Positions 30,689 through 36,273 of a DNA stretch of 64,000 bases are shown piece after piece. Below the pieces are notes generated by a model. That model saw only the letters and a program-made list of their open reading frames with translations, had not been told where the DNA came from and searched no databases. Source of the DNA: Escherichia coli (GTDB lineage: Bacteria; Pseudomonadota; Gammaproteobacteria; Enterobacterales; Enterobacteriaceae); the NCBI RefSeq assembly GCF_003334355.1, contig NZ_QOWP01000001.1, one strand, 5' to 3'. Both the position numbers and the translations under genes were made by a program. The number at the start of each line of letters is the position of its first letter. The first letter of the stretch is position 1.

Positions 30689-32149
<1,461 letters not shown>

Positions 32150-32181
32150 TTAGTTACTGCAGTAGAGGATTTTTTACGGCT

Positions 32182-32400
32182 GCCGGATGCGGCGTGAACG
32201 CCCTATCCAGCCTACGGTTATGTTCCGGTTTGTAGGCCTGATAAGACGCACAGCGTCGCATCAGGCAACGGCTGTCGGATGCGGCGTAAACGCCTTATCC
32301 GACCTACGGTTATGTTCCGTTTGTAGGCCTGATAAGACGCACAGCGTCGCATCAGGCAACGGCTGCCGGATGCGGCGTGAACGCCCTATCCGACCTACGG
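32182..32400. repeat. REP/BIME array (repetitive extragenic palindromes) between tldD and yhdP
   Basis: Repeated units gccggatgcggcgtgaacgccctatcc...cctac and gtaggcctgataagacgcacagcgtcgcatcaggca, arranged in about three tandem ~98-bp units. Confidence 0.9.
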
Positions 32401-32472
32401 TTATGTTCTGGCTCGTTGGCCTTTGGCAACGATTATCCTATGAGATTGGGGCAATTACGCGCCCTCGTCAAA

Positions 32473-35400
32473 TCATTGCGCTTTTTCTTTACGCGGTTGG
32501 CGCAACACTTCGTTGATTTGCGGATCGTCCAGCGGACCCGAAATGTGATAGCGCAAAATGGAGACTTTGCTCCACAGCGGCCCCAGCACTTTACTGGCGG
32601 CAAACACTGCCGCGCCAACAATGGGGTTAACCGCAAAAGCCGCAGCCACGCCCACCGTCGCAGAAATCTCTGGTGCGACAACCGCTTCCATATTCAGGTC
32701 GCGACGTACCAGATTTACCGACCCTTTCATGGCGATATCCGCCTCCAGGCCATCCACCAGCGTGTCGTCGGTGTGCATAACGCCGTCTTTAATCCACGCG
32801 GTGCTGCGAATGGAGTCAAAATAGAACCCTTCGCCAAAAGTGTCTCTGAAATCAAAACGCAGCTTACGCATCAGGGCATCTACGCTCAATAAGCGCAGCA
32901 ATTGCCCGGCATGTCCGGTATTGATTTCGGTAATTTCGCCTTTACCCAGTTGAGTATGAATGATGCCATTCAACGTCGCCTCATCTGGCTGCCACGGTGC
33001 TTTACGCCAGTGTAAATCGTAATCCACATTAAATGACGACTGCCGTATGGGCGTCGTGACACCAAAAAATTCTGCGGCGGCATCAATTTTCTGCCCGCGC
33101 AGTTTTCCTTTCAGCGAGGTACGTTCATTCCCCGGATTATTAACCCATTCACCATCGGCAGTAAGCCGCGAGAAACCAGTATCAATCAGTCCATTGGTCA
33201 GCGTTAATGTATCGCCAGAAATGGTGAGATCACTGTCAATACGACCGAATTTTTGCCCCCAGAACCAGCACTCTGCGCATCGTATTTGTGCGTTCGGCCA
33301 GCCACGGAAGTTAATGCGCTCCGTTGTCGGGAAAGGTGATGACGGCGTTGAATCACCACGAGTTTTCGCCACGCTCGGGTTGTAATAAAGATATTTGATA
33401 TTCGCCAGCCACGGCGCGTTATTACGCATCGCCAGCGTGGCGTTGATTTCACGCCCTTGCGCCTCAACCTGGGTGCCATTTGCCGTCGGTTGCGAAACAA
33501 TACTCAGGTTATTCCATTGCTGATTTCCCAGCGACAACATAGGCGTACGTAACGTTATGTGTTGTGGGAAACTCGCTGCACCACCGACACTCTCCGCCGC
33601 ACCTTTCTGAAACAGGGCCAGCCACTCGGCACCATTCATCGGCGGCATATTGAGTTCAACACCACTTTGTTCCGGCAACGGCGGGAGCGTTTTACTGTCT
33701 GCCGCCCAAATAGCACGGTCGAGCGTCAGCTTTTGACCGAGCAACCAGCGGCTATTGAAATGGTTATCCGCACCAGCCTGTCCGGTTAAATCAAAGCTGT
33801 TGAGATTGCCATCAACCTTAACGTTTACCGGCAGTGGTTCACCCGCAGGTTTGGCTAACGGTGAAGGTAAGTGACTGCTCACATTCTTCAAATCGCCGTT
33901 TAGCTCTACGTTATACGTCGCGCCAGCATGATAAGGCAGAACAATGCCCACTTTACCATCCCACGCCACGCTGCCACTCAATGCTTCGTTCACCGCTGCA
34001 GGCAGAACGCCGGTTTTCGCCGGTTGCCAGTTACCGTTGAGGTTTACCGCTACCTGGTAGGCTTTTGCCCCTTCTTTGGTGGAAAAATCCACGTTCAACG
34101 GCTGATTAAACCAGCTTGCTGTCAGTGGTTCACTTTGCAGATCGCCATTGATAAAGCTGAATTTACCGCTCAAATTTTTCAGGGTGCTGGCGAGTGGTTT
34201 GATAAACAGACTGTTATTACGCAGCGTCACTTCACCTTTCGCGGTTACCAGCTCGCCGTTCAGCGGGATATCAAGATGTAAGCGAGCATTCACATCGCCG
34301 TCGAGCTGGAGTTCTTGCAGGGTCGCACCCAGAGAATCTTTCAGCGGTGTCTCATCAAAGTAAGGGCCAACGGCTTTACCCGGACCTTTAATGTCAGCGT
34401 CAATCAGCAGTTTTTCTTTTGAGTAGTCAGGGATCACTGCGGTAAGATTACTCGCGCGCACGCCGCCCAGATTAACGCCATCGGTTTTCATCCATAAACC
34501 GTCGTTAATAAAGTCCAGTTCAATATCAAGGTTAGTTAATGCAGGCCAGTCCGGCTGGAAGGCAAACTTCGCGTTGCGCAGCGGCACCAGCACTTCAAAC
34601 TGACCTTCGTTGTGTTTATAGGGGAAGAGTTGCGGATTGCCACCATAAACCAGCGTCGCGTTATCCGCTTCACCGCCCTGAATCGCGCCACTTAAGTAAT
34701 CAACCAGGTCTTTACCCATCAAGTTTTCCGGGAAATAGCGCCAGGCTTGTGAACCATCATCGGTACTGATGCCAGCCAGAATACCCAGCCAGGGTTCATC
34801 GTTAGCAGGTTGCAGGTAACGAAAACCGCCGCGCGCATGGACGGCTTTGGCTTTAACGTCAATATTACGCCCATCCAGCTGGAAACCTTTGTTATTGTTC
34901 AGCCAGCTTATAGTTGCCTGGCCGTCGGCGATTTCTAGTGGCGCACGGAATACCGTTTCGTAAGGCATCTTTGCCTGCTTCATCGACGCGGTAAGCAAAC
35001 CATTTTCAACGCTGCCGGAAAGCGTCCCGGAGAAGTGTTCCGCACCCGGTAATAATTTCCATTGCTTCCAGGCCAGATCGCTCCACGATGCCTGAAAACG
35101 GGTCTTGTCTGCCGCCTGAAGCGGGATATCCAGCGCCAGAGTGTTAATCTTGCCGCTCGGTTGTGTGGAGCGCCAAACATCACCCAGTGCAGGTGAAAGT
35201 TTCGCGGCCAGCGGGCGTATGCCCTCCAGGCCTGCCAGCTCCAGATTACTGGCGCGAATCCGGAGTTCGTCACTGCGTTTATTGTCTTTGCCGCCAACGT
35301 CCTGTTCCGGTATCCAGGCCAGCGTCAATGCTCCGCTCGGCCAGGGTTTGCCGTCCATCGTGATCCGTGTATCGGGAATAGAGAACTGCCAGCCCGGATT

Positions 35401-36273
35401 TTCACGCGTAATATGCGCGGTCAGATTATCCACCGACAGCGTATGCGTTTGCTTCTCGCCCAACCAGCTGGCACCGCCCTGTTTCAGCCAGACGTCACCG
35501 CCGGTTACATCGCCTTTGTCGATCGTCATCCAGCCTTCAAGGGAGAACTGTGCCGTTTCCAGCGCAATATTGTCCTGCATCCATTTACCGAGCCACGGCT
35601 TCAGGTCGATGTCATCCGCCTGGAGCCAGACGCGACCATTGCTTAACAACCCCTCATCATCGCGCAAATCCATGCGCACCTGCATCACGCCGTGCTGTCC
35701 GGTAAGGCTGGAGAGGCTTACCAGACCTTCCGCACGGTGTCGACGTGGATCGTTCAGCCAGGTGAGTTGTGGGATCGCCAGCTCGGCGCGCTGACCGGAT
35801 GGCGTCAGGAAACTGACTTCACTGTCGCGGAGATCGAAATGGTCAAATTGACGAAGAAACAGATCGCTGATGTGGCTGGCTTCCAGACTGTCATCGCTAC
35901 CACCGCTGGTGATAGGAGTGTTGGTGCGAAAGCGCAGCTGCCAGAAAGTGAGATCGCGAAACTGCCAGCGCATATGTAACAGGCTCTGCCAGACATCCAG
36001 CGCCAGAGTAACGCGTTTAACCGAAAATTCGCCGCCATCTTTTAGTTCTGCACGGATGTCGTGTGCTTCAAGCGTCGGGCCAAAATTCTGCCAGCTGGCT
36101 GAGAGCTGACTGGCTTCAACCGGCATGCCAGTCGCGGATTCTATTTTGTTGAGGATTTCCGGACGCCAGGCGTCAAGATGCGGTAAAGCAATACGCAGGC
36201 CGCTAACCAGCAGGGCAGCGATCACAACGAGCGCGGCTCCAGTAAGCAGTAAAATCCCCGGCAATCGCCTCAC
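32473..36273 (-). CDS. yhdP: AsmA-like large envelope protein YhdP
   Basis: 1266-aa ORF with an N-terminal transmembrane anchor. Confidence 0.9.
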   Translation of the reverse strand: MRRLPGILLLTGAALVVIAALLVSGLRIALPHLDAWRPEILNKIESATGMPVEASQLSASWQNFGPTLEAHDIRAELKDGGEFSVKRVTLALDVWQSLLHMRWQFRDLTFWQLRFRTNTPITSGGSDDSLEASHISDLFLRQFDHFDLRDSEVSFLTPSGQRAELAIPQLTWLNDPRRHRAEGLVSLSSLTGQHGVMQVRMDLRDDEGLLSNGRVWLQADDIDLKPWLGKWMQDNIALETAQFSLEGWMTIDKGDVTGGDVWLKQGGASWLGEKQTHTLSVDNLTAHITRENPGWQFSIPDTRITMDGKPWPSGALTLAWIPEQDVGGKDNKRSDELRIRASNLELAGLEGIRPLAAKLSPALGDVWRSTQPSGKINTLALDIPLQAADKTRFQASWSDLAWKQWKLLPGAEHFSGTLSGSVENGLLTASMKQAKMPYETVFRAPLEIADGQATISWLNNNKGFQLDGRNIDVKAKAVHARGGFRYLQPANDEPWLGILAGISTDDGSQAWRYFPENLMGKDLVDYLSGAIQGGEADNATLVYGGNPQLFPYKHNEGQFEVLVPLRNAKFAFQPDWPALTNLDIELDFINDGLWMKTDGVNLGGVRASNLTAVIPDYSKEKLLIDADIKGPGKAVGPYFDETPLKDSLGATLQELQLDGDVNARLHLDIPLNGELVTAKGEVTLRNNSLFIKPLASTLKNLSGKFSFINGDLQSEPLTASWFNQPLNVDFSTKEGAKAYQVAVNLNGNWQPAKTGVLPAAVNEALSGSVAWDGKVGIVLPYHAGATYNVELNGDLKNVSSHLPSPLAKPAGEPLPVNVKVDGNLNSFDLTGQAGADNHFNSRWLLGQKLTLDRAIWAADSKTLPPLPEQSGVELNMPPMNGAEWLALFQKGAAESVGGAASFPQHITLRTPMLSLGNQQWNNLSIVSQPTANGTQVEAQGREINATLAMRNNAPWLANIKYLYYNPSVAKTRGDSTPSSPFPTTERINFRGWPNAQIRCAECWFWGQKFGRIDSDLTISGDTLTLTNGLIDTGFSRLTADGEWVNNPGNERTSLKGKLRGQKIDAAAEFFGVTTPIRQSSFNVDYDLHWRKAPWQPDEATLNGIIHTQLGKGEITEINTGHAGQLLRLLSVDALMRKLRFDFRDTFGEGFYFDSIRSTAWIKDGVMHTDDTLVDGLEADIAMKGSVNLVRRDLNMEAVVAPEISATVGVAAAFAVNPIVGAAVFAASKVLGPLWSKVSILRYHISGPLDDPQINEVLRQPRKEKAQ

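Follow-up and report, generated by a model that had tools for sequence, protein, structure and literature searches.

The stretch of DNA between tldD and yhdP in Escherichia coli raises the questions of what kind of repeat fills it, how far the number of repeats varies among strains, and whether the repeats serve the two genes or the chromosome. REP and BIME elements have been known since the 1980s. The locus itself has also been described already, as a BIME-2 in which gyrase cleaves at many sites, and its identity is nothing new. We examined it in a 64,000-nt stretch of E. coli DNA (the window), for which a preliminary description had reported a tandem REP/BIME array between the two genes. That report was borne out by TRF, by the NCBIfam assignments of the flanking genes and by the Rfam family RF02564. 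The feature is a BIME-2 made of head-to-tail units of 91-92 nt, each with one Y REP and one inverted Z2 REP, separated by short linkers within the yhdP-tldD spacer. Taken as a whole, the locus is very probably best explained by this BIME-2 anatomy together with unit turnover, a gyrase site and an expected role of the transcribed RNA.

Both neighbouring genes were present in the open reading frame list and matched their NCBIfam models over the full length. The upstream gene yhdP (32473-36273, minus strand, 1266 aa) matched NF008148 YhdP with 2171 bits, and the downstream gene tldD (30689-32134, minus strand, 481 aa) matched NF008006 TldD with 1061 bits. The spacer from the yhdP stop codon to the tldD start codon is 338 nt, and the array fills most of it. 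As both genes lie on the minus strand, the order on a transcript is the yhdP stop codon, 74 nt, five hairpins, 47 nt and the tldD start codon. TRF placed a tandem array at 32176-32422 (score 424), in which a 91-nt period is repeated 2.7 times with 91% matches. A repeat search gave 90-nt copies at spacings of 92 and 91 nt, the two full copies being 97% identical, which sets the unit length at 91-92 nt. The limits proposed in the preliminary description, 32182-32400, bracket the five REPs almost exactly, but its unit of about 98 bp and its three Y+Z pairs did not hold, as there are three Y REPs and only two Z2 REPs. The order is Y-Z2-Y-Z2-Y on alternating strands, and with three Y but two Z2, the last Y is therefore unpaired. 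Two plus-strand open reading frames that overlap the array (32187-32516 and 32377-32892) were treated as chance frames running through repeat DNA. The five REPs of the array were the only ones detected in the 64-kb window within six edits of the Y and Z2 consensus sequences.

Read from the tldD side, the left edge of the repeat unit is ACGGCT (32176-32181), which adjoins the single REP in all one-REP alleles as well. It is followed by the first Y REP (32182-32215, minus strand; hairpin of -19.2 kcal/mol, z -3.6), which on the transcript precedes the tldD start codon by 47 nt and is identical to the sole REP of the single-REP allele found, for example, in EDL933. A 16-nt tail-to-tail linker, GGTTATGTTCCGGTTT (32216-32231), leads to the first Z2 REP (32232-32266, plus strand), recognized by its sequence, its RNA hairpin and its alignment to RF02564. 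The 7-nt head-to-head linker AACGGCT (32267-32273) then joins this Z2 to the second Y REP (32274-32307, minus strand; -18.8 kcal/mol, z -5.1), which carries the variant GTCGGATGCGGCGTAAACGCCTTATCCGACCTAC on the plus strand. The second tail-to-tail linker, GGTTATGTTCCGTTT, has 15 nt (32308-32322). The second Z2 REP (32323-32357, plus strand), which reads GTAGGCCTGATAAGACGC... on that strand and aligns to the Z2 half of RF02564, folds at -20.2 kcal/mol with a z-score of -5.9. Another AACGGCT (32358-32364) connects it to the third Y REP (32365-32398, minus strand, reading GTAGG... on that strand; -18.7 kcal/mol, z -4.0), which lacks a Z2 on the side facing yhdP. The distal edge, which extends over 32399-32422 to the end of the TRF array, consists of a partial copy of the tail-to-tail linker, GGTTATGTTC, and then unique flanking sequence. 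Thus, the tails of Y and Z2 (CCTAC and GTAGG) face each other across the 16-nt and 15-nt linkers, and the heads are joined through AACGGCT.

These elements have the features of REPs. All five are imperfect palindromes of about 35 nt with an internal stem mismatch. As RNA, each forms a hairpin interrupted by an internal loop, with energies from -18.7 to -20.2 kcal/mol and z-scores from -3.6 to -5.9, well beyond chance. The GTAG foot is found in each, as CCTAC at 32211, 32303 and 32394 in the Y REPs (GTAGG on the minus strand) and as GTAGGCC at 32232 and 32323 in the Z2 REPs. The array lies wholly inside the 338-nt spacer and is thus extragenic. It also belongs to a dispersed family: at megablast stringency, queries containing the array had a median of 7-8 matches in each E. 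coli genome, and the query made of the flanks had one; the full number of REPs per genome is several hundred (PMC3333891). According to Ton-Hoang et al. (PMC3333891), a BIME-2 is a tandem series of y and z2 REPs, joined by short linkers and differing in number among strains, and a BIME-1 is one y-L-z1 unit that contains an IHF site. In the window, Y and Z2 alternate in inverse orientation, Z2 being identified by its alignment with the corresponding half of the REP325 model. The linkers are short (15-16 nt and 7 nt), and the 2.7 tandem copies of the window compare with one to five Y among E. coli genomes. Taking into account the tandem organization, the short linkers and the lack of an IHF consensus, the array is not a BIME-1. 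The preliminary description had also listed IHF among the proteins that bind the array. This was not supported: a search of the whole spacer for the IHF consensus WATCAANNNNTTR, allowing up to two mismatches, gave no match, only short linkers are present, and IHF binds BIME-1 elements, which are single-copy, at their long L linker (PMC3333891).

The number of units had been proposed to vary among strains. We compared strains with a query consisting of the two 300-nt flanks, whose span in each genome reports the length of the array. Among 60 genomes taken evenly down the ranking, the span was 664 nt in 40 (662 nt in one of them), corresponding to one Y, and 938 nt in 19, corresponding to four Y; in the remaining genome the flanks were split. 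In a second sample, 38 genomes had a single Y, two had three and 19 had at least four, and a third, 12-row sample contained seven with one Y and four with four. When extended to 5,426 complete E. coli genomes, an estimated 3,676 carry one to three Y. The single-Y allele accounts for about 3,570 genomes (~66%) and alleles with four or more Y for about 1,745 (~32%), mostly four as in MG1655. The three-Y allele was estimated at 107 genomes, a figure that probably includes a few two-Y alleles, so that about 100 (~2%) share the three Y of the window. These genome-wide counts are estimates that depend on our reading of how BLAST pieces are joined, and they agree with the three independent 60-row or 12-row samples. 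The two-Y allele was present in at least 11 genomes and the five-Y allele in at least 19. With a long-array query, no allele with six or seven Y was found at the top of the ranking, where such alleles would be expected. Exact counts at 80% or higher query coverage with synthetic one-REP (5,420 genomes) and 12-unit (591 genomes) queries were set aside as uninterpretable, overlapping or repeated BLAST pieces having been joined.

Annotated records provided spacer lengths of 155, 247, 338, 429 and 520 nt for one, two, three, four and five Y, respectively. The variability proposed earlier is thus real, and the situation in which all strains would have exactly three units clearly does not apply. E. 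coli alleles differ only by whole internal units: the two-Y allele has the unit map u1-u3, the three-Y allele u1-u2-u3, the four-Y allele u1-u2-u5-u3 and the five-Y allele u1-u2-u5-u5-u3.

Differences in number were also found among laboratory strains. Among K-12 derivatives, two Y were present in OV2, three in the early stocks EMG2 and WG1 and in MC1061 and GM4792, four in MG1655, W3110 and BW25113, and five in XL1-Blue, TOP10, Stbl4 and Origami2. Among B strains, BL21(RP) has three Y, and BL21(DE3) and Rosetta2 have five. GM4792 is 100% identical to the window over 701 nt, which raised the possibility that the window comes from K-12. This was rejected, as positions 1-25000 of the window found their best match in strain PSS-12 (NZ_AP027697.1, 100.0% identical) and other phylogroup-A-like strains. 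The PSS-12 array has four Y in a 429-nt spacer and differs from that of the window by one further change, a G-to-A substitution in the second Y REP. PSS-12 is nearly identical to the window and yet has one more unit, which indicates that the array changed between near-identical strains or that one of the two assemblies is wrong. The spread among K-12 and B strains likewise reflects turnover of units within laboratory timescales or errors of assembly, and some of the differences among laboratory-strain assemblies could be of the latter kind.

The distribution of the locus outside E. coli points to its origin. In a scan of one genome per species, the tail-plus-linker motif of the unit was confined to Escherichia, apart from one contig labelled Bacillus coahuilensis. 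This 96-nt contig (NZ_ABFU01000129.1, strain m4-4) is identical to an internal u5-type unit of the E. coli array and is almost certainly E. coli contamination of a draft assembly. At precisely this site, E. albertii, E. whittamii and two further members of the genus have one Y REP each, with ACGGCT on its left and GGTTATGTTCCGGCTC on its right. As four other species have the single Y, one Y REP is the ancestral state in the genus. The first 13 nt of the right flank of the single REP are the start of the tail-to-tail linker GGTTATGTTCCGGTTT of the array; the recurrence of the flank in the linker indicates that the array grew from the resident Y by addition of Z2-Y units that copied the local flanks. 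Turnover of units probably proceeds through slippage during replication or through unequal exchange, in either case between the 91-nt direct repeats. The RAYT protein TnpA-REP, which is cognate to the Y and Z2 REPs of E. coli, may contribute to this turnover, as it cleaves and recombines BIMEs in vitro (PMC3333891).

Several individual sequences add to this picture. A divergent lineage labelled E. coli SCPM-O-B-8794 (NZ_JAATUR010000001.1, 891-1134) has its own array of three Y and two Z2 at the same site. Its linkers, GGTTATATTCCAGCTT and AATGGCT, differ from those of the window, and two of its Y REPs have a compensatory change from GGCG...CGCC to GGTG...CACC (G-C to A-T) that keeps the stem. 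The units are more alike within an array than between the lineages, which suggests concerted evolution or independent amplification. In E. coli BH100 substr. MG2014 (NZ_CP024650.2, 4300-5850), the loop of the single Y REP of the locus, the counterpart of 32182-32215 in the window, is interrupted by IS1397, an IS3-family element with a transposase annotated as frameshifted. The insertion is bordered on each side by a duplicated GTGA (…GCGGCGTGA|TGAACTG…CAGTTCA|GTGAACGCC…). The published specificity of IS1397 is for the loops of palindromic units, and the insertion fits it. The two flanks were split in the same manner in about five of the 5,426 genomes. A 23.9-kb plasmid of E. coli Z135-5 (NZ_CP161804.1, 13684-13760) contains 76 nt that are 88.5% identical to a Z2-Y segment of the array, indicating that REP doublets occasionally occur on plasmids; only seven matches among about 35,000 places were on plasmids.

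At the level of DNA, the preliminary description had listed gyrase among the proteins targeting the array, and this interaction is documented at the same locus. Topo-seq on the K-12 allele revealed multiple gyrase cleavage sites in the BIME-2 between tldD and yhdP (PMC6379681, Sutormin et al. 2019). The table of that study gives the tldD-yhdP element a length of 307 bp and 35, 13, 3 and 10 cleavage sites in four conditions, compared with 6, 4, 0 and 5 for the sucB-sucC element in the same conditions (PMC6379681). The length of 307 bp corresponds to four Y and three Z2, the K-12 allele. Cleavage at BIME-2 elements rises when transcription is blocked (PMC6379681). In this published work on the K-12 allele of the locus, the array DNA is a strong, transcription-independent site of gyrase binding and cleavage, cut mainly in the Y REPs, and the number of gyrase sites is probably determined by how many Y REPs are present. 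The element is probably REP245a-g of EcoCyc, an assignment made from its position and the seven-REP suffix; a-g denotes seven REPs, and 'rep245' sits 35 kb downstream of rrnD P1 (PMC5110994). REP245a-g is listed with seven other REP regions as shielded from exonuclease during stress and predicted by RAREFAN to be RAYT-associated (mobilome preprint).

We then considered whether the array acts mainly as RNA, as a 3'UTR or intercistronic element that stabilizes yhdP mRNA and partly terminates transcription before tldD, with gyrase cleavage being incidental. By analogy with REP325 and other BIMEs, a minus-strand transcript would carry five hairpins between the two coding regions, and these would be expected both to shield the yhdP mRNA against 3' exonucleases and to reduce the transcription that continues into tldD. 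For REP325, partial Rho-dependent termination and mRNA stabilization have been reported (bioRxiv 10.64898/2026.03.23.713779). The two genes are on the same strand and 338 nt apart, and a simple scan for a sigma-70-like promoter found none in the spacer. The minus-strand RNA of the whole spacer is highly structured, folding at z = -7.1 with none of 100 shuffled sequences folding as well. However, a search for an intrinsic terminator, in which a U tract follows a GC-rich hairpin, was also negative on both strands of 32135-32472. Judged from sequence, the lack of both a promoter-like site and such a terminator is consistent with, but no proof of, co-transcription of yhdP and tldD. In addition, a distance of 74 nt separates the yhdP stop codon from the first REP, beyond the 15-nt range of the translation-coupled mechanism, a single REP suffices in two thirds of E. 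coli genomes and in four sister species, and blocking transcription increases gyrase cleavage at BIME-2 elements. We therefore lean against RNA as the main level of action while regarding it as possible. A different role for the RNA, that of naRNA4-like nucleoid-associated RNAs that condense the chromosome together with HU, seems very improbable. Such a role was proposed for REP325 RNAs by Qian et al. (2015), and both Y-Z2 pairs of the window matched RF02564 (naRNA4) over the full model length on the transcribed minus strand, with 77.3 bits at 32235-32304 and 71.1 bits at 32326-32395 (E = 3.5e-14 and 8.5e-13), above the gathering score of 59.5. On the other hand, RF02564 in effect models a Y-linker-Z2 unit, so that a match indicates membership in the repeat family and is silent on function. 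The nucleoid-condensing model is also disputed for REP325 itself, as a 2026 preprint from groups including the original authors reports that REP325 and naRNA4 do not compact the nucleoid to a measurable extent and that REP-REP contacts are absent (bioRxiv 10.64898/2026.03.23.713779).

It is also conceivable that the array has no selected function at this site, and is a selfish or neutral REPIN cluster amplified by RAYT or slippage whose effects on gyrase and RNA are side effects. Copy number drifts between one and five, even within laboratory lineages, and the single-REP allele is both ancestral and the majority. The doublets of the array are Y/Z2, REP types that reportedly flank yafM, the RAYT gene of E. 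coli (PMC2817692), and the cleavage and recombination of BIMEs by TnpA-REP mentioned above point in the same direction. No RAYT gene adjoins the array, whose neighbours are tldD and yhdP. Against a purely neutral element, five or more Escherichia species have kept a single Y at the exact site, suggesting that the basal REP is under some constraint, and the compensatory G-C to A-T change in the divergent E. coli lineage preserves the hairpin. We judge this explanation plausible, if somewhat short of an even chance. At the other extreme, the array might be a fast minisatellite on laboratory timescales, with the number of Y tuning local gyrase loading, the yhdP:tldD ratio or both, and thus a heritable and reversible dial rather than neutral variation. 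We consider this unlikely; if true, Y number could quantitatively tune gyrase loading and/or the ratio of yhdP to tldD expression. The reading that we prefer for the locus as a whole remains a BIME-2 with unit turnover, a gyrase site and an expected RNA role.

As a discovery, this carries little weight; the variability among strains has been confirmed and now has numbers attached, and the practical points are modest. The array can serve as a length-polymorphic marker with spacers of 155, 247, 338, 429 or 520 nt. As it can differ even between very close relatives and between laboratory-strain assemblies, assemblies and strain identities can disagree at this position. The alleles with one to five Y REPs also constitute a natural series in which REP number can be tested against gyrase binding and operon polarity.

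Among known systems, BIME-1 elements (RIP/RIB) resemble the array in having REPs in inverted orientation within an intergenic region, but they are single-copy, with a long L linker containing an IHF site and a Z1 REP, whereas the array is tandem with short linkers and Z2. Another related system is REP325, the BIME-2 between yjdM and yjdN, one Y-linker-Z2 unit of which is represented by the RF02564 model. In both, Y and Z2 hairpins share their relative order, are repeated in tandem and lie between co-oriented genes. The Y and Z2 of the window are nearly identical to the model, but the head-to-head linker is 6 nt shorter than the 'l' linker of REP325 and the Z2 loop 1 nt shorter. The tail-to-tail spacer is locus-specific, and REP325 lies within 15 nt of the upstream stop codon (mobilome preprint), compared with 74 nt for the array. 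The tldD-yhdP BIME-2 of K-12 W3110 and MG1655 occupies the same locus between the same flanks, and its u1, u2 and terminal unit are identical to those of the window. In NC_000913.3 the spacer is 429 nt with the units u1-u2-u5-u3; the allele of the window has one internal unit (u5) fewer, leaving three Y and two Z2 in a spacer of 338 nt.
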